Shown here: positions 7,097-24,804 of the stretch, piece after piece
Numbering within the stretch: position 1 is the first letter of the stretch
How the letters are laid out: every line of letters begins with the position of its first letter
Source: a phage
Length of the DNA: 64,000 nucleotides
Direction: 5' to 3' (one strand)
Sequence record: PZ386964.1
Notes under the pieces: model-generated
What the model was told of the DNA's origin: nothing
The model's database searches: none
Seen by the model: the letters and a program-made list of their open reading frames with translations, nothing else
Position numbers and translations under genes: made by a program

Positions 7097-7111
7097 ATTA
7101 TTTTTTTGATA

Positions 7112-9054: not shown

Positions 9055-11938
9055 CTGGATACACCTGTTTGATAACGTCGACTATGAACATGTCAATGCC
9101 TTCAAGCTTGCGACCTTTCATCAGGAAGAATGCGCCGTTCCCGACGTTTTCAGCAATGTATTTCCCGTACTTCTGGAACTTTTCTGGACGAATCCTGAAG
9201 CGCATTGGCGAGTCGGTCGAGTCGTCTTTGCACATAAGGTCGATGAACTGAGTCTCAAGCTTGTTTCCGTACTGGTCAAACTCTGCGTAGCGGCCATCAG
9301 CTTGAAGACCTTTTTTAAGCTTGCCGTGCTTTGTATAGATGCCGCGCTCAAGTCGTTTACGGATGCGTGTCGCTTCGTTCTCGTCTGCAAGCACTTTCTT
9401 TGTCAACTTGCCGATTACTATTGCACGCTCGTCATCACCGACTTCCTTCATCTGGCGTATTGAAGCGCCGGACGTCACGCCAATAAGATAAGGGTCATTA
9501 TACGCCCAGCCAAACTTTGTGTGCATCTCTGTAAGGTCGCCGTATTTGACTTCAGCATTGGCCAATGCATCCTTTTGCTTTTGCGTTAAGGTTCCGGCTT
9601 CACGTGCTTCGATATACTTCATCGCCTTCACCATTCCGTATCCTTTCGCGTTCATGATGCCGCCGATTAGCTTTCCGTTCGCGATGGTCCAGTTCATCGA
9701 AGAGTGATCAGGGTCGATTGGCACATAATCCACGCCTTCTTTCGCAAGTTCACGTAGTATCGCAATCGTCTGGTCTTCGTCCTTAGCAGCGCGTAAGCAG
9801 GCAGCGGCAAATTCCAACGGGTAGTGTCGCTTAAGCCACAAAGTCCAGTAGGTCACGACCGCGTATGACACGGAGTGTGACTTGTTAAAGCCCCATGACC
9901 CGAACGTGGCCATCGCTTGCCAAAGCTTTCTTGCATCCGCTTCCGGTACACCGTTATTTATTGCTCCTGCAACGAAGTCTTCGCCAAGCTTGTTAAAGTA
10001 TTCTTCACCCTTACGGCCTGACATCGCCTTACGTACAGCGGACGTTTTCGCCCAGTCAAATGAACCAATCTCTTTAACCACGGCCATGATTTGCTCTTGG
10101 TAAAGAAACACGCCGTAAGTCTCTTTTAAGTACGGCTCAAGCTGCGGCACGTCGTATTCAATCGGCGCACGCCCTGCCGCGCGTTCAATGTATTTCTGGG
10201 CCATACCGGACGACAACGGGCCAGGTCGACCCAAAGCTGTCAGGTTGTCGATTTTGTTAAAGTTATCGACGTGAACAAAGTTTGTTACTGAGCGTACAGC
10301 ATCACCTTCAAACTGGAAGATGCCTGACATCTTGTTTTCGTTAAGAATGTCAAGGACGCTTTGATCATCAAGCTTGATTCCGTAGAGCGTTTCAGCATCA
10401 ATAACGCCTGTATCAGAAATAATGCCGAGAGTACGAAGGCCCAGCGCATCAAGCTTCAAAAGGTTTAGGTATTCGCTGTCAGGCTTATCGATTTGCGCAA
10501 TCCCTTCTGCAGTTACAGTACAGTAATCAGAGATTGGGTCATTACACACAATGATTCCCGCTGCGTGAACACCTGTGTGAGACGGGTGAATCTCAAGGTC
10601 ACCCATGCAACGCGCGGCGTCAGGATATTTCGCCACGAACTCTTGACCCGTGGTCGTTGTTGCAAAGGTATCCTCCAGGCCGTGACCATAACGGGCGTCA
10701 CCGGATGAGTATTCAAGCAGTGCGTTTTTAATGTTGGCTGTTTCGTGGTATCCAATGTTGAACTTCTTACCAACTTGAGCCATTACTGAGTTGGCCTTAA
10801 GCGTGTTGATGTTGCCAAGCTTTGCAACGTTCATTTCGCCGTATTTCTCTTTAAGATAATCAAACACCATATAGCGTTTGGTATCTTCAAAGTCGATGTC
10901 GATGTCAGGAAGGTCGGCGCGGCTTACGTCAATGAATCTGGCAAACAGCAGCTTATACGGGATTGGGTCCACTTCCGTGATGCCGAGGCAATAGCAAACA
11001 AGTGAACCGGCTGATGAGCCGCGCGCAGGACCGACGAGCATTTTTGTTTTTGCGAATCGTACAAGGTCCGCTACTACCAGAAAGTATGAGTCGAAATCTT
11101 TCAGCTGAATCTGGTGAATTTCTTCGTTGAAGCGGTCCTCATATTCCTGAGTCCATTCTTTGATGTGACCTGCTTTTAGACGGTACTCCATCCCCTCACG
11201 CGCAAGCTTTACCATGTCACCAGCAAGGTGAATAATCGGTGCCTTACGCAATTTCAGGTCAAGTCCGACTATGCCGTTTGCTATGTCAACAGCATTGGCC
11301 GTTGCCTGATTGAGCTCATCTTCAGTCAAGATGCCTTTAAGCTGTTTGCGCAAGTCTTCCGCGTCAACGATGCAGTGCGGCTTGACCGTGTCGCGCACTT
11401 CCCAAGCATAAGCGAAGTCAACGTGCTCAGGAGAAGGCATGTGATTGTATCCGGTTAAAACCAGCGGCCTTCCACTGCTACGATGAGCCAATGCCTGGCG
11501 CTTTGCCAAAAGGAACGACGATGGGTTGACGTCTATATAGTCGTAGTCCTCTGGCCGCAGCAACTCCACAGCACCGCCACAGAATTTAACGACGCCATCG
11601 AGCGCACCGAACTCTGAACGGGTAAGTCCACCGCGCTGCGTTGCAAGTGTTGTAGCATTGTAAAAAGATTTTAAGTCAAGGGCCAATATCCAAGCCTTCG
11701 GTTTGAATCCCTTTTTAGGGTCCGCATCAGGGTCGATGATTGGAATCTCCATCCCAAACATAGGCTTAATATCATTTTTCTGGCATTCCTTTTCCCAGCG
11801 AACGTGACCCCATGTATTGTTATCAACTAATGCCGCGACTTCGCAACCCAACTCTTTGAGCCGTGCTATAATTTCAGGATGCCGTCCATATACTTCTTTG
11901 AACGTGTAACCGCTGCGAACTCTCAATTGTGGAAACAT
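9041..11938 (-). CDS. dnaE: DNA polymerase III alpha subunit-like replicative polymerase (DnaE type)
   Basis: 965 aa; N-terminal PHP-like region and the motif GSSAGSLVCYCLGITEVDP matching the DnaE signature. Confidence 0.85.
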   Translation of the reverse strand: MFPQLRVRSGYTFKEVYGRHPEIIARLKELGCEVAALVDNNTWGHVRWEKECQKNDIKPMFGMEIPIIDPDADPKKGFKPKAWILALDLKSFYNATTLATQRGGLTRSEFGALDGVVKFCGGAVELLRPEDYDYIDVNPSSFLLAKRQALAHRSSGRPLVLTGYNHMPSPEHVDFAYAWEVRDTVKPHCIVDAEDLRKQLKGILTEDELNQATANAVDIANGIVGLDLKLRKAPIIHLAGDMVKLAREGMEYRLKAGHIKEWTQEYEDRFNEEIHQIQLKDFDSYFLVVADLVRFAKTKMLVGPARGSSAGSLVCYCLGITEVDPIPYKLLFARFIDVSRADLPDIDIDFEDTKRYMVFDYLKEKYGEMNVAKLGNINTLKANSVMAQVGKKFNIGYHETANIKNALLEYSSGDARYGHGLEDTFATTTTGQEFVAKYPDAARCMGDLEIHPSHTGVHAAGIIVCNDPISDYCTVTAEGIAQIDKPDSEYLNLLKLDALGLRTLGIISDTGVIDAETLYGIKLDDQSVLDILNENKMSGIFQFEGDAVRSVTNFVHVDNFNKIDNLTALGRPGPLSSGMAQKYIERAAGRAPIEYDVPQLEPYLKETYGVFLYQEQIMAVVKEIGSFDWAKTSAVRKAMSGRKGEEYFNKLGEDFVAGAINNGVPEADARKLWQAMATFGSWGFNKSHSVSYAVVTYWTLWLKRHYPLEFAAACLRAAKDEDQTIAILRELAKEGVDYVPIDPDHSSMNWTIANGKLIGGIMNAKGYGMVKAMKYIEAREAGTLTQKQKDALANAEVKYGDLTEMHTKFGWAYNDPYLIGVTSGASIRQMKEVGDDERAIVIGKLTKKVLADENEATRIRKRLERGIYTKHGKLKKGLQADGRYAEFDQYGNKLETQFIDLMCKDDSTDSPMRFRIRPEKFQKYGKYIAENVGNGAFFLMKGRKLEGIDMFIVDVIKQVYPDGNK

Positions 11939-12480
11939 TATTTACTCCATATGTCATATACGCCAATTTGCTGGCAGACTTTGTGCAGTAATATTACGTC
12001 GTCTAATGCACGGTGCTTCTGTTCATATTTTCCGAAATATAATTCATACAACTCTTGAAGCTTAACTCTTCGACCAAAAATAGGCAAGGTTTGCTCGACC
12101 GTACAAATGTTTATATCTGGAAATGATACATCACTTAATGTAAGTCCTTCGCGCTGTAGTGCATAATCAAGAATGTTTTTATCGAACGCATGGTTGTGCG
12201 CGATAGTTGCATCAGTCTTCTTGAAGATTTCTTTTAGCTGCGGGACGAAATTGATGAACGGTGGATTGCACTCAAGGTCTTCATTTGTTAATCCGGTAAT
12301 CTTTGTGATAATTTCTTCAATCACGATTTCAGGATTAATTATGAATTCAAACGTTTCAAGAATCTCTTTGCCGTCTGTCAACAGACCTGCAAATTCAATA
12401 GGGCGCGGCTGCATCCCAAGCGGCGCTTTCGGGTGCACGGTCAATCCGGTTGTTTCGAAGTCATAAGGGAGAAATAACAC
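11938..12480 (-). CDS. dnaQ: 3'-5' proofreading exonuclease, DnaQ/epsilon-like (DEDDh)
   Basis: Exo motifs YDFETTGL, HNHAFD and HRALDDV; immediately upstream of and coupled to dnaE. Confidence 0.8.
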   Translation of the reverse strand: MLFLPYDFETTGLTVHPKAPLGMQPRPIEFAGLLTDGKEILETFEFIINPEIVIEEIITKITGLTNEDLECNPPFINFVPQLKEIFKKTDATIAHNHAFDKNILDYALQREGLTLSDVSFPDINICTVEQTLPIFGRRVKLQELYELYFGKYEQKHRALDDVILLHKVCQQIGVYDIWSK

Positions 12481-12491
12481 ATTAGCCTCCT

Positions 12492-12518
12492 ACAAAAAGG
12501 CCGCCCATTAGGACGGCC
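12492..12518 (-). terminator. Terminator-like hairpin in the leader of the dnaQ-dnaE pair (possible attenuator)
   Basis: Minus-strand RNA GGCCGUCC-UAAU-GGGCGGCC followed by UUUUUGU, ending only ~10 nt before the AGGAGG site of dnaQ. Confidence 0.45.
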
Positions 12519-12534
12519 ACAGATTCACGATTCG

Positions 12535-13086
12535 TTATACAGTGTACGGAGTACCGTCTTGATTCAAGCGCACGATGAACTTCAAATCGACGCCGATGAT
12601 ATCGCGCGTGTCAAAGATCACGTAATTGTAGCGACGTTGACCAGCAATGTTTGGATTGGTGTGGGAGTCGGTGATGACTTCCTGCGCAACCTGAATGCCT
12701 TCTTCGCTAAAGAACTTACGCCATTCAGCAAGTTCAGCGGCAGTTACGTGCATGCCAAGATGGCTAACCTGATTGTCGTGTGCATCGATATATTCGATGT
12801 TTTCGTTGATCCAGTTGCAGCCCATTGTGTAGTCAAGGATTTCAAGCTCAAGAGGCTTACCAGCGTCGCCATCAGTACCATTGCCAGCCTGATAGTTGAA
12901 GCGCAAGTCAGCTTCATTGGTGCAATCGTCGCGACGACCTTTAAAGTCATCAGCTTCAAATACGCGACCAGTAGCAACAACATGATCATGGAACCATTCT
13001 GTCAGGCCGATTTTAGCCAAGAAATCCTGTGCGCGCTGAGCATCTGGAATTGACAGGGCGATTTGTTCAATTTTAAAATGTGGCAT
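12535..13086 (-). CDS. Hypothetical protein, possibly glyoxalase/VOC-fold
   Basis: 183-aa ORF; weak resemblance to the VOC superfamily (HLGMHV); assignment tentative. Confidence 0.4.
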   Translation of the reverse strand: MPHFKIEQIALSIPDAQRAQDFLAKIGLTEWFHDHVVATGRVFEADDFKGRRDDCTNEADLRFNYQAGNGTDGDAGKPLELEILDYTMGCNWINENIEYIDAHDNQVSHLGMHVTAAELAEWRKFFSEEGIQVAQEVITDSHTNPNIAGQRRYNYVIFDTRDIIGVDLKFIVRLNQDGTPYTV

Positions 13087-13106
13087 TTTGTTTCCTTAAT
13101 TAAATA

Positions 13107-13277
13107 TTATTGATTAATTACTGTGTTGCCTTCGATGGAATAAGTCTCAATGGAACCGACGCGCTCGTGGTTAATCTTTGCGTTTTCGATTCTTATTACT
13201 TCAAATCCAACGCCTTCTTGATCAATCTTCACTTCTGCCACGTCGCCAATCACTTCTACAACAACTTTGATAGTCAT
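13107..13277 (-). CDS. Small hypothetical protein (56 aa), absent from the ORF track
   Basis: ATG-initiated minus-strand ORF (MTIKVVVEVIGDVAEV...) filling the gap between two genes. Confidence 0.3.
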   Translation of the reverse strand: MTIKVVVEVIGDVAEVKIDQEGVGFEVIRIENAKINHERVGSIETYSIEGNTVINQ

Positions 13278-13280
13278 GAT

Positions 13281-13964
13281 TTATTTCCCAAATGGAATAT
13301 CAGTACCAGACATAAAGCGCCATGCGCCCGTAATTAAGATATGGCGAATGAAGTCAGCAATTACTTGCGGCTCAGTTTCCAATCCATTCATCAACGCCTT
13401 TTTCTGGTATTCAGCAGCATACTCAGGAGTCCAGCCGCGAGTCGCGCAAACAGCATCTTCAATCTGTTTGGACATGCCAGTACCGCGTAGCTTGTTAGGA
13501 CTAATAGAGAATACCGTGATCCCGTATTTAGGCGTAAGCTCGTGAGCCATCTGCTTGCTAATCATGAGCGCAGCAGCCTTGGAAGCATTATAACACAAGC
13601 TGGACGTCATAGGAATATGCGCAGCGTTGGAAACGATATTGATCACAAAACCTTTGTTGTCAATAAGACTTTTCAGCGCGGCCTGAGTCGTGTTGACGAA
13701 AGAGAAGGCGTTGGTGTGCATAACGCGATTGAACTCTTCGTAGTTAACATCTTCGAACCAGTTGTTGGAGTTGACGCCAGCGCAGTTGATCAAGCCTTCT
13801 ACATCATATGGGCTTAAAATTTCTTTCATCTGTTTAGCGTCGCGGACGTCATATCCGTATGCTGAATCGATGCCAAGCACGTTATGACCGTAAGCGCCAA
13901 GGGTGTCGAAAATAGATTTACCAAGACCGGAATTGGAACCTGTTACAACAATTACTTTTTTCAT
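13281..13964 (-). CDS. Short-chain dehydrogenase/reductase (SDR) family oxidoreductase
   Basis: N-terminal VTGSNSGLG (TGxxxGxG) and catalytic YNASK (YxxxK) motifs; own promoter upstream. Confidence 0.75.
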   Translation of the reverse strand: MKKVIVVTGSNSGLGKSIFDTLGAYGHNVLGIDSAYGYDVRDAKQMKEILSPYDVEGLINCAGVNSNNWFEDVNYEEFNRVMHTNAFSFVNTTQAALKSLIDNKGFVINIVSNAAHIPMTSSLCYNASKAAALMISKQMAHELTPKYGITVFSISPNKLRGTGMSKQIEDAVCATRGWTPEYAAEYQKKALMNGLETEPQVIADFIRHILITGAWRFMSGTDIPFGK

Positions 13965-14000
13965 TTATTTATCCTTTTTGGACTTCGTTTCGATGAGATA

Positions 14001-14029
14001 AATATAACTCATCGAAACGCACAAGTAAA
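14001..14029 (-). promoter_or_regulatory. Sigma70-like promoter with conserved leader motif and inverted repeat across the -10 (upstream of the SDR gene)
   Basis: Minus strand: -35 TTTACT (plus 14024-14029), 17-bp spacer, -10 TATATT (plus 14001-14006); 12-bp inverted repeat CGTTTCGATGAG / CTCATCGAAACG flanks the -10. Confidence 0.45.
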
Positions 14030-14902
14030 CTATTTATTGAAATTAATATTATGGGTGTTAACAAGACGTTCACACATGGCGCTGTAAACACCATCATCGT
14101 GTATAGAGTCTTCGTGCTTCAGGCCGCTGATTGCAAAGCGTGTAAGCTTGACAATCTTAAGCTCGAACAGATGCCACATGTGGTAGTCTTCCGGCGTTTT
14201 CAACGTTACTCCATTAGGGAAAAGCACCTGCATAACCTGGCCAACCATCACGGCGTTATCGCCATAGACAGCGTTGCGCTCACGGAAGGTTGCTGCCATT
14301 GCATCAAGAATATCGGCGGCAGTTGCCGGAGATTGTTCAACTTTCACAGCCTTAGTCTCTTCTTGCCCTGTTGCACTTGGATCAATTGCTAATTGTTGCA
14401 CCACTTCACCTGCCTTGCAAAGATTAAATGTAAAAGCGATTTTATTTTGAGCAACGGAATTATAATACAATGCTTCATCTTGCATCCGCGCGAGTACGTC
14501 TTGTCGGTCGTCGAATACGTTGATGATTCGATAATCGCCGTGCCGCAATGCGTGCGATAGCCATGCAGATTTCATAATAGTTGATGGACGTTTGTCGCCA
14601 TAGTCTCTCATCTTGATTGTAAATTCATCAAAAGGAAAAACATTGTCCAGACGTTCAAAAGTCGCTTGTCTGTATTTTTCTGGCCTTGCAGTCCAATATT
14701 CAACCGCCTCACCGCGAAGAGATGCCGACTCTACTGCTGATGCAATGTGAGGATAGAACTGATCATAACCAATACCGCTGTGATAGTCATCATAGTCTGA
14801 CAACGGACCTGCCACCTTGATGCGGTCTAAGCGCCAACGGTCATCAAACAGCGTTCCGTCAAGGTCGAATACGTTTAAGATTTCGCTGTTTTTAATACTC
14901 AT
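14030..14902 (-). CDS. HAD-superfamily phosphatase fused to a C-terminal alpha-helical domain (possibly NTP-pyrophosphatase-like)
   Basis: N-terminal FDLDGTL and later VFDDRQD motifs; C-terminal ~140 aa with paired acidic helices (FELKIVKL, HEDSIHDDG). Confidence 0.55.
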   Translation of the reverse strand: MSIKNSEILNVFDLDGTLFDDRWRLDRIKVAGPLSDYDDYHSGIGYDQFYPHIASAVESASLRGEAVEYWTARPEKYRQATFERLDNVFPFDEFTIKMRDYGDKRPSTIMKSAWLSHALRHGDYRIINVFDDRQDVLARMQDEALYYNSVAQNKIAFTFNLCKAGEVVQQLAIDPSATGQEETKAVKVEQSPATAADILDAMAATFRERNAVYGDNAVMVGQVMQVLFPNGVTLKTPEDYHMWHLFELKIVKLTRFAISGLKHEDSIHDDGVYSAMCERLVNTHNINFNK

Positions 14903-15729
14903 CCTTTTGATACTCCATCTTTAGCAACTGGATTGTTGGTGATTGGCATCGCACTCCAAAACTGGATGCGCAACTCTTCTTGCTGTGCCGTTGTATCCAT
15001 CCAATCACGATACCAAGGGCAATGGGCTTTGCCATGACGAGGAAACGCGCATTTACCCATACCGATGCATTGCGGCTGTAATAATGGATTTGCCCACGGG
15101 TGCACCTTGAGGACTTCCGCAACCATTGCGCGGAATACTTCTTGATACTCGCCTTGAGTGCGCGTGCACAAGCGGTTTGACGCCATCTGCTGCAGCGTGC
15201 GCAAGTTGAACTTTGCCATGATATGCGTTTGCATATTAGAAGGCAACACGGCACGTGCATCTTGAATCTCTGCACCAGCCGCGCGAAGTTCTTGATACAA
15301 AGCATCGATAGTCGCCATCGCATCATCCCACTTCTCTGCTAAGTATTGCTTTTGAAGTAAAGATTGGTGCTCTTCATCAGTCCCAAATGCTTCACATTGA
15401 TCAATCAACTCTGGATTTTGGTGTGAGAATGCCTTCGGACGAATCGCATCAAATGCAGACGACTCCTGAGCGCGGCTGGTGCGTTCTTGATATGCGCCTG
15501 TGCGTGTGCGTACCATCTGATGGGTCATGTTCTTTGATACAGCTGTGATATCAAAGATATAGTCCACAAAGTCAAAAGGAGACTTGATTGTATCAAGCAT
15601 GTAGCGCCAATGCTCTTGCTTCTCTGATTCCGTCATCTCAGAGACAGGCTTACCAGTCATGCGCGTGTTCTTTGTTTCCAGCAAAAGGTCAAGTGCATCT
15701 TGGGTGTATCGAATTAATTCAACTTTCAT
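14899..15729 (-). CDS. thyX: Flavin-dependent thymidylate synthase (ThyX)-like protein with a divergent motif
   Basis: Segments THQMVRTRTGAYQERTSR and ARAVLPSNMQTHIMAKFNLRTL align to ThyX motifs (THELIRHRH...SQRY; ARAVLPNATETR), but RHR is replaced by RTR; Cys/His-rich C-terminal extension. Confidence 0.6.
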   Translation of the reverse strand: MKVELIRYTQDALDLLLETKNTRMTGKPVSEMTESEKQEHWRYMLDTIKSPFDFVDYIFDITAVSKNMTHQMVRTRTGAYQERTSRAQESSAFDAIRPKAFSHQNPELIDQCEAFGTDEEHQSLLQKQYLAEKWDDAMATIDALYQELRAAGAEIQDARAVLPSNMQTHIMAKFNLRTLQQMASNRLCTRTQGEYQEVFRAMVAEVLKVHPWANPLLQPQCIGMGKCAFPRHGKAHCPWYRDWMDTTAQQEELRIQFWSAMPITNNPVAKDGVSKG

Positions 15730-15742
15730 TTTAATTGTCCTA

Positions 15743-16189
15743 TTAACGGTAATTCACTAGTTGCTGATCACCAGAGAAGGTGCAATGATAAACGAATTGT
15801 GCGTTATAAAGCAACTGAAAACTTTTCTTTGGTTCACTATTAGAACTCATTGATGTAAAGATTTCTGCACCAGAACGGTTTTCACCAATCAGATTGATAA
15901 AGCCGCCAGTTGAACGAGGCTGGACGAAAGTGAAACGTTGCATCCACGGAGTACGGTTGGCACCTTTCCCTGTGAATCCCTGAATCTGAATATTCAAACC
16001 TTCTTGCTCATTCACACCGATGTAAGTGGTAATCTTCGCACCAGTCGTTGCTGCGGTCTTACCGTCCATCGCTTCGCAATCATAAACAGCGATTGAATCG
16101 GAAGTGCGGATGGCAGCTTCAGTCGCTTCCATATACATGGTGCCGAGAATAGCAGTTGCGGCAAGCGTGATTCCAGTGATTCGTTTCAT
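15743..16189 (-). CDS. Putative secreted protein (signal peptide), unknown function
   Basis: Hydrophobic N-terminus MKRITGITLAATAILG; two cysteines in the predicted mature part; embedded between enzyme genes. Confidence 0.5.
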   Translation of the reverse strand: MKRITGITLAATAILGTMYMEATEAAIRTSDSIAVYDCEAMDGKTAATTGAKITTYIGVNEQEGLNIQIQGFTGKGANRTPWMQRFTFVQPRSTGGFINLIGENRSGAEIFTSMSSNSEPKKSFQLLYNAQFVYHCTFSGDQQLVNYR

Positions 16190-16254
16190 TTTCGTTTCCT
16201 CTATGAGTTCTGCTTCAATGATTAAAGTATACGCCCATTGAAGCAGAAAGCAAA

Positions 16255-17250
16255 TTATTTATTAGCAATATAAGCAAATTTTTGATAGTTATTTGCTTTG
16301 ATGAGTTTTTCAACTTCAACAAGGTCATGAGCGACGTCATCAAGCAAAATGTTGCGCCAGGTAGCAAATCGACCGACACTAAACACGTTCAAATCCATGG
16401 TCAGCTGCAGGAGTAGGGCGTGTCGCAAGTCTTTCGGAATGTCGACAATCTTGCCATATTTCTGGTCGACCTTTTCAACTTCTTCAAGAGCGATGTCGCT
16501 CCATGAGAGGCCAAATGCCGTCAGCACTTCGTCAACTTCTGCGCGCAACTTGATGTCACGGTAACGAGTGATGCCGCCAGCGGCTTCAACTGCAGCTTCA
16601 CTTACGCTGACCAAAGGAATTGTTTCAATGATAAGCGTGTCACCAGTAATTGATGCGCGGTAAGTTCTGACGGAGTAGTCAGGGAAGTAAATTGTCTGAT
16701 ACAAATCACACTTACGTTTAATCTTAAAGCGGTAAACGCGAATGTTTGCTTTATCAAATGAGAAATCAAGCTTTTGATCAATTCCAGCAAGCTTCATCAT
16801 GACTGGCAGCGGCGACGTGTTGATGATTGGCGTCTCGCTATAGCCGCAAAGAGTATCAACCGGAGTATTAAAGAATATGCGGTCACCCAGTTTGTCGACA
16901 AGCTGATCATAAAAGTCATCAGGTGCAATATAACGCGTTGCAGTTTTAAGCTTCATGATTGAACGACTGCCAAACTGATTGGTGACCTTCATGGAATACA
17001 TATTGGCAAGGTTGATTGGGCAATGGTCGTGATAGTAGTTGCCGCGAAAATACACAGCCTTGTCAACTGTCACGGCCTTAAAGGGGATTCCGGTAATACG
17101 GCTTACTTCTTCGCCGCGAAAGCGTAGCAGCGCCTTGTGCTGTTGCGCTCGTTCCCCTGCTTCGTACACAATAGAGTTCGGGAAGTGACACGCGGTGATA
17201 AGTCCTGCCAGTCCGCCGCCGATAATCATTACAGGTTGTTTCATGTTCAT
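16255..17250 (-). CDS. FAD/NAD(P)-binding oxidoreductase
   Basis: N-terminal dinucleotide-binding motif VMIIGGGLAGL; ~331 aa; specific family not resolvable by eye. Confidence 0.6.
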   Translation of the reverse strand: MNMKQPVMIIGGGLAGLITACHFPNSIVYEAGERAQQHKALLRFRGEEVSRITGIPFKAVTVDKAVYFRGNYYHDHCPINLANMYSMKVTNQFGSRSIMKLKTATRYIAPDDFYDQLVDKLGDRIFFNTPVDTLCGYSETPIINTSPLPVMMKLAGIDQKLDFSFDKANIRVYRFKIKRKCDLYQTIYFPDYSVRTYRASITGDTLIIETIPLVSVSEAAVEAAGGITRYRDIKLRAEVDEVLTAFGLSWSDIALEEVEKVDQKYGKIVDIPKDLRHALLLQLTMDLNVFSVGRFATWRNILLDDVAHDLVEVEKLIKANNYQKFAYIANK

Positions 17251-17327
17251 TTGTCCTTTGTGGGTGATATGAGAAGTATAATAGCTAAATTATTTTACAG
17301 CAACAAGTCATTTCTATTTAGTACAGA

Positions 17328-17357
17328 CGAAAAAAAGACCCACAACAAGTGTGGGTC
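17328..17357 (-). terminator. Rho-independent terminator after the KEA-rich protein gene
   Basis: Minus-strand hairpin GACCCACA-loop-UGUGGGUC followed by a run of seven U. Confidence 0.65.
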
Positions 17358-17385
17358 AATTACCGCTATATAACCGTCCTACAGG

Positions 17386-18231
17386 TTATTCCGCTTGATC
17401 ACCGTCTTCGGCATCGTCGTTGGATTCAACATCGACAAACTCGATGTGGCCCATCTCTTCCAGCTTGCTCAGGTAGGAGCGAACGGAAGCGCCAAACAGT
17501 TGATCTTTAACTTTCTCTCCCAGCTCATCGATAGACTGCGCCACGCCAACTTCGCCTTCTTTGATCGCCGCCAGAACGCGCCCACGGGTGGAGTGCTCTT
17601 GCGGCTGGCTCAGGCCATTGCCAGTGTAGATGAAGTGAGTAGCTTTTGCACGACGCTGACCGTTTGCCTTTTTAGCAGCCTTGCGCTCTGCGATGGCTTT
17701 GCGACGTTCTTCAGCTTCTTTCTTACGCTGTTCTTTCTGCTGTTCTGCAGCTTCTTTCGCCGCAATCTTAGCAGCTTCACGCTCTGCCTTGCGTTTCGCT
17801 TTAGCTTCTTCTTTGGCCTTCTCTTTTTCGGCCTTCGCTGCAGCACGGGCCTGATCACGTTCGGCCTTTTTCGCCGCAGCTTGTTCAGCTTTCAGGCGCT
17901 TGGCTTCTTCTTTCGCCTTTGCCTTTTCAATTTCTTTAGCGGCTTTAGCGGCTTCACGCTCTGCCTTCTTAGCGGCAGCCTTTTCTGCACGCTCTTTAGC
18001 TTTCTTAGCTGCTTCTTCAGCACGCTTCTGAGCCTTCTCATCAGCAGCTTGCTTGCGTTTCAGCGCAGCTTCTTCACGCTTGGCTTGTTTTTCCTGCTCA
18101 CGCTTCTGGCGTTTTTCTTCGGCTTCTTTCTTTTTAGCCAGGCGTTTTTCTTCAGCCACGCGACGACGTTCTGCTGCGGCTGCTTGTTTTTCTTCTTTAG
18201 ATAATACTTTGATTGCTTCGGCCATATTCAC
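17386..18231 (-). CDS. Lysine/alanine/glutamate-rich low-complexity protein with C-terminal globular (possibly winged-helix) domain
   Basis: ~200 aa of KEA repeats (AAKKAEREAAKAAKEIEKAKAKEEAK) followed by ...VRSYLSKLEEMGHIEFVD and an acidic tail; terminator downstream. Confidence 0.55.
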   Translation of the reverse strand: MNMAEAIKVLSKEEKQAAAAERRRVAEEKRLAKKKEAEEKRQKREQEKQAKREEAALKRKQAADEKAQKRAEEAAKKAKERAEKAAAKKAEREAAKAAKEIEKAKAKEEAKRLKAEQAAAKKAERDQARAAAKAEKEKAKEEAKAKRKAEREAAKIAAKEAAEQQKEQRKKEAEERRKAIAERKAAKKANGQRRAKATHFIYTGNGLSQPQEHSTRGRVLAAIKEGEVGVAQSIDELGEKVKDQLFGASVRSYLSKLEEMGHIEFVDVESNDDAEDGDQAE

Positions 18232-18384
18232 AGTCCTTAAATAAATTAGTTTATTTTATATTCCCCGTTTGGGATAACTTAATTATGCCTTCAGTTGCCG
18301 CCAGTAGCAACTAAAAACTATGGCGGCAATGCCACTTTAATTAAACTGATTTTCAGTTTTATTTTTCGTAAATTTACGTCAACA

Positions 18385-19569
18385 TTAACGCGCTTTCAAA
18401 TCACGGTACACGGTCAGATTCTTCTTAGCACGGGTGATAGCGGTGTACATCATCTTGGAGTACGGAACGCCGCGCAAGATTTCTTCCAGCACGCACACAT
18501 TGTCCCACTCGCTGCCTTGCGATTTGTGCACCGTGATGACATAGCCATAGTCCATGCCTCCAACAGCGCGTTGCGCTTCTTTGCGCACTTCCTGATCAGT
18601 AGAGAAGGAAAGAGGATTGATCTTCACCTTTATATCTTTACCATCAGTTAATGAACGTAAGTTGACATACATTATTTCATTCGACTCATCTTCATCCCTT
18701 TCAAAGTCCGGCACTGGCTCATAGCTAATAACAATCCCTTGCTCGCCATTACAGAATCCTGGCCCGTGTTGGTTGAAGGTGCAAATAACCTTCTCACCGA
18801 TTCCTGGCATTGGCGTTATACGTCCGCTCACTTGCCGTAATAATGAATTCCATTTATCTTTGGTGCTATTATAGGAGCAAATAATTTGATCATCTTCGCC
18901 CATGAATTTCTTCAACGCAGTAACGCGCGGCGATTCTGCCAATACTTTGACGTCATCGTATTCACGCGGAGGAAGTCGGTTGCCTTGGCGCACGAAGAAG
19001 GAGGCACGGATGATGTTGGACTCTTTCCCTTGCCGCATGATTTCTGTTAACAGAACGTCAACGGCATCTTCAGTAAAGTAGGCGGCGGCTTTTACCGGAG
19101 GGACTTGTCCAATGTCGCCTAATGCCAGCACAGGGATGCGGTGATCAAGAAGGCGCTCTGTGTCCCACTCGCCAACCATCGACGCTTCATCGAGTACAAC
19201 AAGGTGCGGCCTTTCATCCAGCTTTGACTTTCTCGAAAAGATTGGCTCATTGTCGTCATTTACGCCGCGCACGTTATAGATGAACTGGTGAAGGGTCTTA
19301 GCGCCACGACAGCCTTTTTGCTTTAATCGGCTTGCAGCCTTTCCGGTCGGCGCAATATAGATAGCGCCGTACTCACCGACACAGCGACGCACAATCTCGC
19401 GAGCAATAGAGGTTTTACCAGTCCCTGCATAGCCAGCAATGAAAAACACACGCTTCGTCGTTTTACCGTCCTGCAATCGCTTGTACCATGCAACGGCCTT
19501 CTCGATGGCATTGATTTGTTGCGCGTTAAACTGAATCACTGGCTCATCATTAAATTCTGGAATGTTCAT
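18385..19569 (-). CDS. Superfamily 1 DNA helicase, Dda/RecD-like
   Basis: Walker A GYAGTGKT, Walker B VLDEASMV, C-terminal motif ITVHKSQGSEWD. Confidence 0.8.
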   Translation of the reverse strand: MNIPEFNDEPVIQFNAQQINAIEKAVAWYKRLQDGKTTKRVFFIAGYAGTGKTSIAREIVRRCVGEYGAIYIAPTGKAASRLKQKGCRGAKTLHQFIYNVRGVNDDNEPIFSRKSKLDERPHLVVLDEASMVGEWDTERLLDHRIPVLALGDIGQVPPVKAAAYFTEDAVDVLLTEIMRQGKESNIIRASFFVRQGNRLPPREYDDVKVLAESPRVTALKKFMGEDDQIICSYNSTKDKWNSLLRQVSGRITPMPGIGEKVICTFNQHGPGFCNGEQGIVISYEPVPDFERDEDESNEIMYVNLRSLTDGKDIKVKINPLSFSTDQEVRKEAQRAVGGMDYGYVITVHKSQGSEWDNVCVLEEILRGVPYSKMMYTAITRAKKNLTVYRDLKAR

Positions 19570-19895
19570 TATAACTCCACTACGCTGTCAAGGTCCAGAT
19601 ATACTGGAATAAAATGGCAATCTTCTTTTCGTTCAAACATCTCACCATCAACATGGCTGAAGAAAACAGTTGTGTTTGGTATCTTCCATCCTTTCTCGTC
19701 GCGCACTAAGTACGCCATGGATTCAACAGGGATGTACAGCGATACCGGATTTGCGGCAAAAATAAATTTGATTCTGTCTGGTTGACCCAGGAATCGCATG
19801 ATTGTTAGGCTTGAATTCAATCTTGTATTAAGGAAGGACTCAACGATTCCGACGTGTGTTGCACGTTCGCGTTGCTTCGTCTCTTTTTCGTTCAT
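19569..19895 (-). CDS. Hypothetical protein
   Basis: 108-aa ORF, first gene of the minus-strand block; coupled to the helicase gene. Confidence 0.5.
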   Translation of the reverse strand: MNEKETKQRERATHVGIVESFLNTRLNSSLTIMRFLGQPDRIKFIFAANPVSLYIPVESMAYLVRDEKGWKIPNTTVFFSHVDGEMFERKEDCHFIPVYLDLDSVVEL

Positions 19896-19998
19896 TTCAG
19901 GCGACCTTTGTTAGTGCGGAAATATTTTCTGATAGTATAATTGCAGATATAGTATAAAGCAAAGTAAATCGAAATTGTGAACTAAATGGTAAATATTG

Positions 19999-20026
19999 TT
20001 GACTTTGTATCACTCAATATTATACT
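19999..20026 (+). promoter_or_regulatory. Sigma70-like promoter for the plus-strand primase / early-gene block
   Basis: -35 TTGACT (19999-20004), 16-bp spacer, -10 TATACT (20021-20026), in the divergent intergenic region. Confidence 0.55.
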
Positions 20027-20055
20027 GCAGGTATTGATCACCGAAGGAAAGAAAG

Positions 20056-21138
20056 ATGGCTAGTTTAAGAGAAGAAGCAAAAATAATCGAAGAGTTTTTA
20101 ACAGAACTCCAAAGAGGCATTCCAGAAGATGAGCGCGTCATGACGGTGTTTGCGCCTGAAGCAACGGTACAGACTGACGAGCGCGGCAAGAAGATTAACA
20201 GCAGCTTCTGGCCTAAGCCTTGGAAGTTGGGAAAGCCGCTGATGCAACATCAGAACGGTTACGCCTGCATAAGTTCAATGCGTAAGTCTCCCAACCCAAA
20301 GACGGGTGAGATGCGATACTGGCGTACAGAGTCGGCCTTTGGTCACGGCATGGCGATGATGGTCGACGACATCGGTCACGGTAAAGGGTCCAAAGGCGAT
20401 TTAGATTTGGAATTCTTTTTTGAGCGACTGAAGCCGACTGTCATCGTCGAGACTTCACCGAACAACCACCAGCTTTGGTACTTCTTTAAAGAACCGATTG
20501 ACCATCTTATTCAGTTCAAAGCGTTCCTTGGGTCTTTCGTTAACATGGTACTCAAGAAGGGCGGCGACAACACGATTAAAGACGTAACGCGCGTGGGCCG
20601 TGTTCCTGGGTGCATCAACAACAAGCGTGTGACTCACGACGGCCCCTATAAATATGTCGATGAGAACGGCGACCCGTTCCGCTGCCGACTTGTCCATGCA
20701 GACTACTCATTGCGCTACACCATCGAAGACATTTGTCAGGCATTTGGCTTTCACGTCGTCATGCCGCAAAAGCGTGAGATTCAAATTGACGTCGATGAAT
20801 ACAAGTATGATGCTGTTTGGTATAAAATAGCCCAGCAGATTCTATCGCGCAGCAAAATGGGTGAAGGGTCTGATGGTGACGTCATCGAGAACATGTCAGG
20901 CAAGTGCCGCATAATCTGTCCTTGGGGTGAAGAACACACCAACGGCGACCCGTATGGCGCTTACTTTCGCGGCCCTATTCCTGGTGCAGAACATGAGTTT
21001 GTGTTCGGTTGCGCCCACGACTGTCACCGGAAAGGGGAAGGCAAGAAAGGTTGGACTGCTTTTGTTGAAGCAATCGTCATGCCTTATATTGAGAATCAAC
21101 TTGACATGATAAATCGTCGTGCAGGTGGCATAAAATAG
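20056..21138 (+). CDS. Putative DNA primase / primase-polymerase-like replication initiation protein
   Basis: Motifs MVDDIGHGKG and VIVETSPNNHQLWYFF resemble primase-polymerase catalytic motifs; C-terminal Cys/His cluster; upstream of a P-loop helicase. Confidence 0.4.
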   Translation: MASLREEAKIIEEFLTELQRGIPEDERVMTVFAPEATVQTDERGKKINSSFWPKPWKLGKPLMQHQNGYACISSMRKSPNPKTGEMRYWRTESAFGHGMAMMVDDIGHGKGSKGDLDLEFFFERLKPTVIVETSPNNHQLWYFFKEPIDHLIQFKAFLGSFVNMVLKKGGDNTIKDVTRVGRVPGCINNKRVTHDGPYKYVDENGDPFRCRLVHADYSLRYTIEDICQAFGFHVVMPQKREIQIDVDEYKYDAVWYKIAQQILSRSKMGEGSDGDVIENMSGKCRIICPWGEEHTNGDPYGAYFRGPIPGAEHEFVFGCAHDCHRKGEGKKGWTAFVEAIVMPYIENQLDMINRRAGGIK

Positions 21139-21139
21139 T

Positions 21140-21168
21140 TTGCTTTTATTTTCATAGCAACTATAATC
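21140..21168 (+). promoter_or_regulatory. Sigma70-like promoter
   Basis: -35 TTGCTT (21140-21145), 17-bp spacer, -10 TATAAT (21163-21168). Confidence 0.45.
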
Positions 21169-21196
21169 ATTTTATGAACTGAAGCAGAGGTGATTC

Positions 21197-21343
21197 ATGC
21201 AAAGCGAAGAATTGAACATCGAGGTTGAATGTCTGTTAAAGTCGTTAGAACCTAAACCAGCAGAGCTTCCGACCCTTCAAGGAGTCATGGCTCACCATCA
21301 AGCGGCTGCGGCCCAACACTACTCTGAATTTGTTAAGGAATAA
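21197..21343 (+). CDS. Small hypothetical protein (48 aa), absent from the ORF track
   Basis: ATG preceded by GAGGTG; promoter-like TTGCTT, 17 bp, TATAAT upstream. Confidence 0.35.
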   Translation: MQSEELNIEVECLLKSLEPKPAELPTLQGVMAHHQAAAAQHYSEFVKE

Positions 21344-21345
21344 AA

Positions 21346-21636
21346 ATGAACGAACCAAAAATGATGACCGTTGAAGAAGCACAAAATCTTCGTGTTGAAA
21401 ACGAGCTTAAGCTTGTCAACCAGATTCTTCCTTTGTTTGCGGGCTACGCAGTGGAGGAAGTTGTTGGGGCAATCCTTAACGTATCCACGCATGTCGCTAT
21501 GAATCTTCAGGCCGAACGATTCAATACGCTGCTGACTATTAAAAACCTTACGGTCAGTGCAACGTTCACCGTTGAGCCAGTCAATTTTGACGAAGCTTCA
21601 GCCGCGATTCAACAGCAAAGAGATCAAGAGGTGTAG
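21346..21636 (+). CDS. Hypothetical protein
   Basis: 96-aa ORF in co-oriented array. Confidence 0.5.
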   Translation: MNEPKMMTVEEAQNLRVENELKLVNQILPLFAGYAVEEVVGAILNVSTHVAMNLQAERFNTLLTIKNLTVSATFTVEPVNFDEASAAIQQQRDQEV

Positions 21637-21637
21637 C

Positions 21638-21901
21638 ATGGGTGCTTTCCGTAACGAGTTCACCTGGAACGTTACCAGCAATCTCTCGACTTGTCCTAAC
21701 TGTGCGAGCGATGTTATCAAGGTGCGGCAGCATCGCAACGCGGAGGAAGGTGCCTGGGAAGATGGCGACCTTGTAGAGTGCCAGTGCTGCTCTCATGAAG
21801 GCGTTGTGGAGCTTTACGCTGGCGAAGGTTGCCCACCAGCAGAGCGCACAGCACGCGTTGAATGGGATGCAACAGACTCCATTGGTGATCCTCAACAGTA
21901 A
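21638..21901 (+). CDS. Small zinc-ribbon-like protein
   Basis: Internal ATG with GAGGTG site; CPNC ... CQCC cysteine pairs. Confidence 0.45.
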   Translation: MGAFRNEFTWNVTSNLSTCPNCASDVIKVRQHRNAEEGAWEDGDLVECQCCSHEGVVELYAGEGCPPAERTARVEWDATDSIGDPQQ

Positions 21902-21919
21902 ATTTAGGTATAGATACTT

Positions 21920-22024
21920 ATGAAAGCCGTAAAGAAATACACATTAATCATTTCCCTTGTCATCATCCTGGGGCTATTATACATATTGGATATGACATAT
22001 TATTTGGCAGGGGTGAGTGGATGA
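21920..22024 (+). CDS. Small hydrophobic peptide (34 aa), absent from the ORF track
   Basis: Single predicted transmembrane helix (LIISLVIILGLLYIL); stop overlaps the next start (ATGA). Confidence 0.3.
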   Translation: MKAVKKYTLIISLVIILGLLYILDMTYYLAGVSG

Positions 22025-22311
22025 ATATTGTAATTCTTTATGGTGAAAATATCAGCGATGACGACATCGAAGTTGCCGTTGATGTTTACGGTATCGATGA
22101 GGTGAAACGTGTTGAAGAAATTAGTGGCGCAAATCTCAATGAGATTGTCAAAGAAGCTGGCTGTCCTTCGGAAGAGATTCTGGTGGTTACTAACGATGAC
22201 CTGTCTTCTATGGATCATTTGCGCCGCATCTTCACCGATTGCCAATACCTTCATGCTGTTCAATCAGTAAACAAATTGAGAAAGGCATACGCCAACCAAT
22301 TTCCTTGTTGA
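22021..22311 (+). CDS. Hypothetical protein
   Basis: 96-aa acidic ORF; followed by a terminator hairpin. Confidence 0.5.
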   Translation: MNIVILYGENISDDDIEVAVDVYGIDEVKRVEEISGANLNEIVKEAGCPSEEILVVTNDDLSSMDHLRRIFTDCQYLHAVQSVNKLRKAYANQFPC

Positions 22312-22352
22312 TAGTTCACCAGTTATATTGCTTTAAATTGAGTTTTACTATA

Positions 22353-22376
22353 TTAATATACAACGCCAGAAATCTG
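22353..22376 (+). terminator. Rho-independent terminator upstream of the helicase gene
   Basis: Hairpin ACGCCAGA-AA-TCTGGCGT followed by TTATTT. Confidence 0.6.
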
Positions 22377-22447
22377 GCGTTTATTTACCGCACCCTGAAA
22401 GGATATATCCATGCAACAATATAACAAAGCCGTATCAGGAGGATTAA

Positions 22448-24118
22448 ATGTCAATTGAACATGACAATCTTCCAGAGGATACAGGTGATGAATTTGGTGC
22501 AATCTTTGACGAAATTCAAGACGCTGGTGTTTCAGAAGAGATGCAAGCGGCAGAGCAGCAAGGCACCAGAGCTAAAATCAGCCTCCAGCATAAGGCTGTT
22601 GAGAAAGATGCAGAGCGCATGGAATGCTACGGTGAAGAAGACTTGGTTGAAAGAGCACGCTTGCTCGCCTCACTTCAGGTAATCAAGTTCCCTCACTACA
22701 AGCCTACCAAAGATGACTTCGTTCTACAGGCAGACCGGACGAGTGACATGAACCGTTATGCGGTTTTCGACGCGTTGTTTGATAAGGGAAGTGGCATTGT
22801 TCCATTCCCTCACAAAGATACTTTTCGTGGGCGCTTAGTCGACCATCGCGGCGAAACATTCACTGACCGTACCTTGGAAGTCACAGAGATAGTTGCCGCT
22901 GTCGACGCAGCAGGACTGTCTAACCCAAACTCACGTCAGGTCGCTCAATCCTATAAGGAATGGGCCATGCGTTATCAGCGCGACGACCTGATGGACTTCT
23001 TCTACAAGAAGCTTCCTGAATGGGACGGTACTGCGCGCATTGAAAAATACCTTATCGAGCTATTCCGACCGTTCGATACAGAGTTAAACCGACAAATCGG
23101 TGTGTATTTTTGGCTATCGCTCTACAACCGCCTGACAAACCCTGGATGTCAAGCGCCAATCTCCATCGCGCTCATCGGCGGCCAGAACGCAGGGAAGAGT
23201 TATTTTAGTAAGCTACTTTGCGAAGCTATTATGAACGACCGCCACGCAACACCGATTCCGTTGAACTTGGCCGCGCAGAACTTCAACCCGTTCTTGCGAG
23301 CTATTACGGGTCGCTCAATTATCGCGAACGTTGGCGAGATGACAGGCTTTAAAAAGGCTGACATCGAAAACATGAAAGCATTCCTGACTAAGACGGAAGA
23401 TGACCTGGACTTCAAATTTGAAGATACGCAGGTTAAACCACGCCAGTGGATTGCTATCATGGACGGCAACGAATACGCAGGTATGCAGCGTGATGACACG
23501 GGCAACCGTCGTGTGTATCCTATCTTTGTTGGCCAACTCGCCGACAAGGACGGGCAACCGAACTGGTCGAAAGATTTCCAAGCCGACCTTTCCACTTTGA
23601 AAGAAGACGTTTGGCAGTTGATGGCTGAGTGCGCTGCATGGATGGAGAAGCACGGCGAAGCAGGTTACAACGCATTTGTCGGTGAAACATCTCGCATGCT
23701 TACTGAGTTCAGCAAGAACGAAATGGAACGTGCACGCGGCGTTATCCGTGATGAGATGGTCGACAACGACCTTGTTGAAGTAGTCATCACCGCGCCTTAT
23801 GACCGACATCACAGCGGACGCTGGCACATCACCAGTGGTGCAATCGCTATGGGATTCAGAGCTAAGTGCGGCAAGTCGCCTTTCTCACGTACCCTTGCGC
23901 CGCACATGTCGAAGCTTGGATTTGAGCCTGCAACCTATCGCAACCAGCGTGGTTACTTTACGCCGCTGATTAAGAATGAAGCAGGGGAATACATTTCTGA
24001 CTTGATGACCATCTTAGCGTATCTTATTCGCGATGAGTCTGACCCTGAAGATATTGACTTCTTGAAGAAGGTTATTGAACGCAAACGTTCTTTAGGAAGA
24101 GATAAGGATGAATTCTGA
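22448..24118 (+). CDS. P-loop NTPase / helicase of the phage-plasmid primase-associated (VirE/D5-like) type
   Basis: Walker A IALIGGQNAGKS and a Walker B-like IAIMDGNE; 556 aa; CAGGAGG ribosome-binding site. Confidence 0.6.
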   Translation: MSIEHDNLPEDTGDEFGAIFDEIQDAGVSEEMQAAEQQGTRAKISLQHKAVEKDAERMECYGEEDLVERARLLASLQVIKFPHYKPTKDDFVLQADRTSDMNRYAVFDALFDKGSGIVPFPHKDTFRGRLVDHRGETFTDRTLEVTEIVAAVDAAGLSNPNSRQVAQSYKEWAMRYQRDDLMDFFYKKLPEWDGTARIEKYLIELFRPFDTELNRQIGVYFWLSLYNRLTNPGCQAPISIALIGGQNAGKSYFSKLLCEAIMNDRHATPIPLNLAAQNFNPFLRAITGRSIIANVGEMTGFKKADIENMKAFLTKTEDDLDFKFEDTQVKPRQWIAIMDGNEYAGMQRDDTGNRRVYPIFVGQLADKDGQPNWSKDFQADLSTLKEDVWQLMAECAAWMEKHGEAGYNAFVGETSRMLTEFSKNEMERARGVIRDEMVDNDLVEVVITAPYDRHHSGRWHITSGAIAMGFRAKCGKSPFSRTLAPHMSKLGFEPATYRNQRGYFTPLIKNEAGEYISDLMTILAYLIRDESDPEDIDFLKKVIERKRSLGRDKDEF

Positions 24119-24765
24119 TGAATAAAGCAATCAACATCGCTAAATTCTTTCAACATCTTGGTGAACTGAACAAAGAAAGTGACGTTCACGGCGAAGAAAT
24201 GAACCGAATGATCTCAACCGTGTTGCGCGGCTTTGGTTATGATAAGGACTCGATCACTTGCAAGCGTACAAAGCTTGTCGATGAGTCTTATCTTTACTAT
24301 GTAGAGCTTCGCATCGGGAAAGATGTGATGATCATTGACCCTAAACTGGAAGGGGCGCACTGTTTTGGCGCTCACCCTCGTGCGAGTGAATTCAAGGGTC
24401 GCGGTCGCAACCGAATCCAAAAGCTTGATGATGCAGGCGACTTGAACATTGCTATGTTCCTCAAAGAGTTCCTTGCTCTTCCAAAGGTTGCATCATCCAC
24501 GGGTCGCGATGACCCTTGCAAGATTGGCTTCAGAACTAAAGATTTGCGCAATGCGCTACGCAAGAAGGGATTTGTGCCTTCTTATGACAACGTCGCCGCG
24601 CTGATGGCTTCAATGGAGGAAGCTGAAGCGATGGACAAGGTGCGCGGCTATTTCCTGAATACAGGCTTCACCATGTATGAATGGCACACGAAGGGATTGA
24701 CTGTCGCCGACTTCATCTATTCATTAGAGCAGAAGTATGTACGCAATATGCAGGCCACAGGATAA
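24118..24765 (+). CDS. Hypothetical protein
   Basis: 215-aa ORF coupled (ATGA) to the helicase gene. Confidence 0.55.
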   Translation: MNKAINIAKFFQHLGELNKESDVHGEEMNRMISTVLRGFGYDKDSITCKRTKLVDESYLYYVELRIGKDVMIIDPKLEGAHCFGAHPRASEFKGRGRNRIQKLDDAGDLNIAMFLKEFLALPKVASSTGRDDPCKIGFRTKDLRNALRKKGFVPSYDNVAALMASMEEAEAMDKVRGYFLNTGFTMYEWHTKGLTVADFIYSLEQKYVRNMQATG

Positions 24766-24804
24766 TCATCATCAAAATATTTGCTTTTCTGACGAGGTGA
24801 TATT

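Follow-up and report, generated by a model that had tools for sequence, protein, structure and literature searches.

A winged-helix protein with a long predicted mixed-charge helix, encoded in the replication module of Wifcevirus and related PB1-like phages, is a candidate DNA-binding accessory protein

One winged-helix or helix-turn-helix domain combined with a very long Ala/Glu/Lys/Arg-rich helix is known from KfrA of IncP plasmids and from Bacillus RacA, both of which bind DNA via the N-terminus and have tails that form oligomerising heptad coiled coils. Long charged helices also occur as the ER/K single alpha-helix domains of myosin VI, myosin X and caldesmon, which are high in Glu and Lys/Arg, have few hydrophobic residues and lack a heptad seam, and as domain II of TolA, whereas linker histones H1/H5, AlgP and Hc1 are the reference for a winged helix joined to a Lys/Ala-rich low-complexity region. 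Here, a 64,000-nucleotide stretch of phage DNA (sequence record PZ386964.1, hereafter the window) was analysed at the gene on its minus strand at positions 17386 to 18231, whose product combines a predicted uninterrupted N-terminal helix with a C-terminal winged helix. Like KfrA and RacA, this protein is small and apparently non-enzymatic, and its gene lies in a replication or maintenance module; unlike them, it has the reverse domain order, no heptad periodicity and no operator that could be found, and KfrA_N gave no Pfam match.

The reading we favour, at a probability of roughly 45%, is a DNA-binding accessory protein that makes contact via its hinge and winged helix and carries the long helix as a stalk. 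It would be a non-enzymatic accessory of the replication/nucleotide-metabolism module of PB1-like myoviruses, made from its own transcription unit, with its working end in the C-terminal third, where a flexible basic hinge precedes a canonical winged helix-turn-helix. This hinge and winged-helix module would bind nucleic acid, with double-stranded DNA as the most likely ligand. The N-terminal two thirds, predicted as a rigid mixed-charge helix of about 27 nm, would not be the DNA-binding element and may instead project from the DNA-bound domain as a stalk or spacer, or provide a surface for self-association or for a partner. The acidic tail probably serves to modulate DNA binding or to make contact with a partner.

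A C-terminal winged-helix-like domain, a plausible recognition helix and an acidic tail had been put forward in the original prediction, and all three were recovered. Modelled alone, the domain had a core predicted local distance difference test score (pLDDT) of about 85-90 and, in the order strand-H1-strand-H2-H3-strand, the three-helix core, small beta-sheet and H2-turn-H3 that characterise the winged helix-turn-helix at superfamily level, with the third strand of the sheet supplied by the N-terminal strand (HFIY). The nominated recognition helix coincides with helix 3, the recognition-helix equivalent, and the tail occupies the last 15 residues. The H2-turn-H3 segment is SIDELGEKVKDQL-FGAS-VRSYLSKLEEMGHI, with a conserved Gly in the turn and an L..L...G-h-h ending typical of the ArsR, IclR and TrmB families. 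Across 30 diverse members of the family, the second Arg of the hinge, Q209, S212, R214, the turn Gly, R249, L252, K254 and L255 were conserved, and the conserved polar and basic residues clustered at the hinge, at the start of helix 1 (Q209, S212, R214) and on helix 3, where R249 and K254 are kept family-wide and S250 and S253 only within the PB1-like branch. The hinge holds a family-conserved Arg-Arg (R191, R192). Since this Arg-Arg, the N-terminus of helix 1 and the exposed face of helix 3 are all conserved, DNA binding by the hinge and winged helix is plausible.

The winged helix is also the part of the protein that persists when the rest changes. The family is small, with 40 representatives recovered from 1.84 billion proteins by an index-free search (used for family size; a word-indexed search with the short domain returned 4-11 proteins), and its winged-helix domain is always C-terminal. 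Long-helix orthologs make up class 1; the most distant members, class 2, form a second, larger branch, in which the Lys/Ala/Glu helix is replaced by an unrelated N-terminal module of about 40 amino acids (…TYNALTGKSIKKF.SR…) and a linker. A search with this module returned 108 clusters, 104 of them new, and 76 of the 104 bear the same winged-helix domain. The winged helix is thus the only part common to both classes, and because it is kept while the N-terminal part is swapped, it is taken as the constant functional unit. The net charge of the hinge has a median of +3 to +4 in both classes. The acidic tail is a class-1 feature, found in almost all long-helix orthologs (net charge -1 to -17 in named orthologs, -18 to +1 over 30 members). 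The mobile module of about 40 amino acids (…TAELVAEYNALTGKSIKKFSSRAAGEKQV…; proteins P0123-P0145 and loci L008, L009, L011) matched no Pfam model and may resemble the SAP/HeH DNA-binding motif. It was also seen joined to other C-termini in about 26 clusters, several of which gave weak zinc-ribbon-like matches.

The open reading frame (ORF) at this locus spans exactly 17386..18231, as originally predicted, and counts 281 amino acids from a GTG at 18231; its strand (minus) and its start codon were corrected. The ATG at 18225, which gives 279 amino acids and a stop, is the probable translation start, because it lies 8 nucleotides from the Shine-Dalgarno AAGGA and the GTG only 2, and the record of phage Bas98 annotates the ATG start (279 amino acids) for its ortholog. 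The translation matched the PHROG 4765 profile over the full length of the family (E = 1.3e-84; residues 3-281 in GTG numbering against profile positions 14-271 of 294). Five other Wifcevirus genomes differed from the window by 25-31 nucleotides each within the gene, with no non-synonymous change in four of them and two in the fifth. The PHROG match and this synonymous bias together establish that the gene is real and more than a chance ORF. In the helix-coding part the same comparisons gave 17-27 synonymous against 0-1 non-synonymous differences, so the low-complexity part is under purifying selection like the globular part, and selection is strong along the whole gene. An antisense ORF directly opposite (17395..18204, plus strand; 269 amino acids, Phe/Leu/Ser-rich) is an artefact of the low-complexity coding strand: read in the minus-strand frame, the substitutions between genomes are synonymous.

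The window belongs to a Wifcevirus and shares 95-98% identity with members of that genus such as WFC, FEC19, ECML-117 and Bas98-101. They are myoviruses of E. coli and Shigella with a distant relationship to the Pseudomonas Pbunavirus (PB1-like) group. The surrounding block encodes an SNF2 helicase, a DNA polymerase with an exonuclease subunit, PNK, ThyX, a 331-amino-acid protein with a GxGxxG motif and a Dda-like helicase, with genes for a RepB-type primase and a VapE-like helicase in divergent orientation to it. The placement in a replication block proposed earlier was therefore borne out, the gene lying between that for the Dda-like helicase and those for ThyX, PNK and the DNA polymerase. 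The same position was found in Pbunavirus, Myosmarvirus, Bcepfunavirus, and Luteibacter and Aeromonas phages, and in 32 viral-contig loci, with genomes of about 65-73 kb where complete; the gene was always in a replication/nucleotide-metabolism module. Class-2 genes take the equivalent place in related replication modules, followed by a homolog of the 331-amino-acid protein and then ThyX, and often overlap the downstream gene; one long class-2 contig (L008) also carries PNKP, a separate RNase T-like exonuclease and a Pol III-alpha-type polymerase. The protein belongs to a catalogued phage family of unknown function, and its overall architecture matches no defined family.

For the N-terminal part, a full-length AlphaFold2 model (mean pLDDT 85) showed residues 2-185 as one uninterrupted alpha-helix, with mean pLDDT of 71-96 across these residues and values above 90 for about residues 21-110; as a single helix, it is predicted to be about 27 nm long. 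Ala makes up 30% of residues 1-190, Lys 24%, Glu 21% and Arg 11%. The "AAKKAEREAAKAAKE-type repeats" described earlier turned out to be low-complexity composition rather than true repeats, since Tandem Repeats Finder, run on the DNA, gave two micro-arrays only, of 2 copies each, and a repeat-protein reading was dropped. Over 38 loci and database representatives, the segment was 131-274 residues long, with 22-34% Ala, 22-35% Lys+Arg, 17-29% Asp+Glu (22% in the window) and a net charge of +1 to +26; one representative fell outside these ranges (Ala 14%, Lys+Arg 20%, net charge -8). Whole-protein net charge ran from -11 to +20, about half of the orthologs being net negative or neutral, among them those of Pbunavirus (LBL3, -9), and the Wifcevirus copy lies at the charge extreme (helix +25, whole protein +17, isoelectric point (pI) 9.6). 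Charge compensation between helix and acidic tail was considered, and no such pattern was seen across the ortholog charge table.

Hydrophobic residues account for 3-8% of the helix in named orthologs; the most divergent representative reaches about 21%. No heptad (3.5-residue) periodicity of Ala and hydrophobic residues was detected in 6 orthologs, and opposite-charge pairs at i+3/i+4 showed weak and variable enrichment (z -2.0 to +3.6). The segment can thus be read as a mixed-charge single helix, or as a helical rod of a non-canonical kind, about 27 nm long; a polycationic DNA-neutralising tail would not fit. It resembles ER/K single alpha-helix domains in composition and in its predicted uninterrupted course, and on the model could likewise act as a rigid spacer; it differs from them in being richer in Ala, in the modest pair enrichment (z 0.1-3.6) and in the 11/3 periodicity of two orthologs. 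This 3.67-residue periodicity was seen in the helices of LBL3 (L002:5470-6354; z +5.9) and Luteibacter phage Pluto (L005:1928-2803; z +4.6) and is absent from the Wifcevirus helix; it could reflect hendecad-type packing in some lineages.

Several results weigh against DNA binding by this domain. No basic beta-hairpin wing follows helix 3 at the C-terminus, where the acidic tail stands in its place, and the winged-helix core is neutral to acidic in the PB1-like branch (pI 5.5 here; median net charge -1 in class 1), although it is mildly basic in class 2 (median +3). A Foldseek search against the PDB gave nothing significant (best E = 0.47), and no operator-like repeat near the gene was conserved across orthologs. 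Searches of a viral structure library returned family members only; PDB searches with the C-terminal domain as a single sequence, a 6-sequence profile or a 30-sequence profile found nothing significant; Pfam gave no family at E <= 1, NCBIfam and PADLOC gave no match, and the named winged-helix families (MarR, ArsR, Fur, BlaI, DUF3489 and others) had no Pfam or NCBIfam match to the domain. A suspected resemblance to DUF3489 was set aside after HMMER gave no match.

The lack of a basic wing and the neutral-to-acidic core would suit a protein-protein adaptor, in which the winged helix binds a protein or peptide and the long helix serves to tether enzymes of the replisome or of nucleotide metabolism or to space them, an explanation that we hold to be unlikely yet deserving of attention. 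Protein-binding winged helices are found in RPA32C, ScpB, kleisin C-terminal domains, archaeal PolB1-binding protein 2 and the recognition domains of peptide-modifying enzymes, and the first four of these have no sequence relationship to the phage protein. Candidate partners would be the Dda-like helicase, whose gene is the usual upstream neighbour, and the flavoenzyme-like 331-amino-acid protein encoded downstream. The latter has an N-terminal GxGxxG dinucleotide-binding motif, a C-terminal GRFATWRNILLDD motif and 68 columns that are invariant with distant metagenomic phages included; it had no Pfam, PDB-sequence or PADLOC match, is labelled UDP-galactopyranose mutase or polyamine oxidase in a few records, and looks like an uncharacterised flavoenzyme of phage nucleotide metabolism. 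Its gene co-occurs almost perfectly with the winged-helix gene (362 against 357 phage records) and is directly downstream in 30 of the 34 loci placed with local tblastn; in the two distant loci that remain, the called gene tables show it there as well. In the PB1-like loci examined, it is flanked by the winged-helix gene on one side and the ThyX gene on the other. The overlap of the two genes in distant loci suggests translational coupling. The pairing is nonetheless separable, with Bcepfunavirus phages carrying the winged-helix gene without the 331-amino-acid gene and Rhizobium and Vibrio phages the reverse, so an obligate complex of the two proteins was rejected. In Wifcevirus and Pbunavirus, moreover, a terminator sets the two genes apart as separate transcription units, and the conserved Arg, Lys, Ser and Gln on helix 3 and in the hinge are more typical of contact with nucleic acid.

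The gene for the candidate DNA-binding accessory protein has a transcription unit of its own in Pseudomonas phage 14-1 (Pbunavirus), according to a long-read ONT-cappable-seq map (bioRxiv 10.1101/2023.10.13.562163), in which terminator T011 (51354) closes the helicase unit, sigma70 promoter P034 (transcription start site 51317) drives TU035 (994 nucleotides), which holds only the ortholog gp67 and runs to terminator T009 (50323), and the ortholog of the 331-amino-acid gene has its own promoter, P030. The Wifcevirus window has the equivalent layout, the monocistronic sigma70 unit being experimental in 14-1 and predicted in the window, where a strong terminator hairpin (17357..17337, followed by seven T) lies 29 nucleotides past the stop codon; terminators are annotated at the equivalent place in LBL3 and MTx, and the WFC match lists one too. 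Separate transcription hints that the product is required at another level, or at another time, than the enzymes encoded next to it. Within the 14-1 ortholog (NC_011703, 50389..51273) the same map places internal start sites P031 (50440), P032 (50518) and P033 (51005) and terminator T010 (51089); P032, which has the phage-specific "CTGGG" motif, is placed inside the codons of the conserved SYLSKLE(V)MGW recognition helix, and transcripts from the internal sites read through into downstream genes.

A site-specific transcription or origin factor, whether an autoregulator, an origin binder or a factor for the non-sigma70 "CTGGG" promoters of 14-1, is improbable. A host-type promoter would allow such a protein to act ahead of the middle and late genes. 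In 14-1, 11 phage-specific promoters show no activity unless phage factors are present, and in the window a 9-nucleotide inverted repeat, TTGCCGCCA/TGGCGGCAA (18295-18303 / 18321-18329), overlaps the predicted -35 element of the gene. The repeat also overlaps the weak hairpin upstream, and inverted repeats upstream of 6 orthologs were not conserved, LBL3 and Pluto having none; they are most simply explained as terminators of the helicase gene. With up to one mismatch, the 9-mer TGGCGGCAA occurred 45 times in the genome window against 18.5 expected, a count reached by 0 of 100 shuffles, and the copies were scattered through coding regions on both strands without clustering, a diffuse excess that probably reflects oligonucleotide or codon bias and argues against a binding site. 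CTGGG was not enriched in the intergenic DNA of the window (5 observed against 6.2 expected). The 14-1 study itself names gp12 as its candidate for the factor, and it is not obvious what a helix of 27 nm would do in a simple regulator.

A reading as an H1-like or nucleoid-associated protein, with a Lys-rich region that coats the DNA of phage or host or compacts it, is the one originally proposed, and we now rate it as a long shot. The charge and pI of the Wifcevirus copy speak for it, as do the joining of the helix to a winged-helix fold, the class to which the globular domain of H1 belongs, and a separate transcription unit compatible with high expression. The polycationic character is, however, not conserved across the ortholog charge ranges given above, acidic residues make up 17-29% of the segment, which is predicted to be a rigid helix rather than a disordered tail, a whole branch of the family (class 2) replaces it, and the domain order is the reverse of that in H1. 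AlgP and Hc1 differ from the phage protein, as H1/H5 do, in that its region contains acidic residues, is helical and N-terminal and does not conserve its positive charge. No linker-histone profile matched in Pfam, histone H1.0 appeared at E = 0.62 in the PDB profile search, and the yeast H1 globular domain scored no better than other winged helices in Foldseek (E = 3.2, probability 0.15). The H1-like reading of the Lys/Ala/Glu region was accordingly not supported, and coating or compaction of DNA found no specific support.

Public records name orthologs "TolA protein", "putative structural protein", "head morphogenesis protein" or "FlhF", and those of 14-1 and PB1 "hypothetical" only. The TolA and structural labels look like artefacts of an odd amino-acid composition: the Lys/Ala/Glu-rich helix resembles TolA domain II, also a long continuous alpha-helix of similar length, in composition only, which explains the first, and in LBL3 the structural label is accompanied by the note "cell wall associated hydrolase", as is typical when a BLAST hit reflects composition. 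The protein differs from TolA in having no N-terminal membrane anchor and no domain III and in its place in a cytoplasmic phage replication module. The helix is similar in length to the width of the periplasm. A virion-associated or envelope-spanning role, for example as an internal or pilot protein with its helix across the periplasm, is nevertheless very improbable: such labels stand in several GenBank records, and the Pa193 cryo-EM study reports unassigned short helical density beneath the capsid hexons, but the protein has no membrane-spanning or signal segment (maximum hydropathy 0.61; Kyte-Doolittle, 19-residue window, membrane threshold about 1.6) and no TolA C-terminal domain by Pfam, that end being the winged helix. 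Its gene follows a sigma70 promoter and belongs to the replication module. Of the 31 proteins detected in SCUT-S1 virion ghosts, from which the DNA had been removed, none is encoded by either gene next to that for the Dda-like helicase, and no protein encoded in this region is mentioned in the main text of the Pa193 virion atlas (21 chains). A literature search on the Pbunavirus ortholog (TolA label, transcriptome) found nothing functional.

As a DNA-binding accessory protein, the product could be taken one step further, with a DNA-anchored winged helix that bears a rigid single-helix stalk of about 27 nm as the founding case of an uncharacterised replication-module class, a spacer or bristle that organises or shields replicating phage DNA; we think this version quite unlikely. 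If true, the stalk could, for instance, keep host nucleoid proteins or nucleases off, or space replisome components, and might contribute to two properties reported for Wifcevirus phages, unusually fast replication and resistance to restriction (BASEL study). It would then add an unusual architecture to phage-DNA organisers; otherwise the protein would be one more small DNA-binding accessory. In either case the results correct its annotation, with a winged-helix fold, a mixed-charge helix in place of a polycation and a mapped monocistronic unit. The protein is kept in the replication module by Pbunavirus, which the BASEL study counts among the most used phages of Pseudomonas in personalised therapy, and is also conserved in relatives on E. 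coli, Serratia, Burkholderia, Xanthomonas, Luteibacter and Aeromonas.

Table 1. Positions of the gene, the parts of its product and the flanking elements in the window.
Feature	Position	Strand	Basis or remark
Coding sequence	17386..18225	minus	PHROG 4765 match, E = 1.3e-84; near-all-synonymous substitutions among Wifcevirus genomes
Shine-Dalgarno AAGGA	18234..18238	minus	8 nucleotides 5' of ATG 18225; read from sequence
Mixed-charge Ala/Lys/Glu/Arg helix, residues 2-185	17671..18222	minus	AlphaFold2 model and composition
Basic hinge KANGQRRAKAT, residues 186-196	17638..17670	minus	Conservation; low pLDDT at 188-190; pI 12
Winged helix-turn-helix domain, residues 197-264	17434..17637	minus	Order strand-H1-strand-H2-turn-H3-strand
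Helix 3 VRSYLSKLEE, residues 248-257	17455..17484	minus	Recognition-helix position
Disordered acidic tail DVESNDDAEDGDQAE, residues 265-279	17389..17433	minus	Sequence and model
Sigma70-like promoter TTGCTA-17-CATAAT	18282..18310	minus	Predicted to drive the gene alone
Weak terminator-like hairpin, end of the Dda-like helicase unit	18320..18335	minus	Prediction
Intrinsic terminator, 8-bp stem GACCCACA / TGTGGGTC, 5-nucleotide loop, seven T	17327..17357	minus	Sequence
Dda-like SF1 helicase gene, usual upstream neighbour	18385..19569	minus	Context
Gene for the 331-amino-acid GxGxxG protein (PHROG 4828), downstream, then ThyX	16255..17250	minus	Context

Elsewhere in the replication block (about 7100..24800), no SSB, sliding clamp or clamp loader match was obtained among the ORFs scanned, which did not include every small ORF. 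At 15743..16189 on the minus strand, a 148-amino-acid ORF of this block, without a PHROG or Pfam match, begins with a signal-peptide-like N-terminus (MKRITGITLAATAILGTMYMEA).

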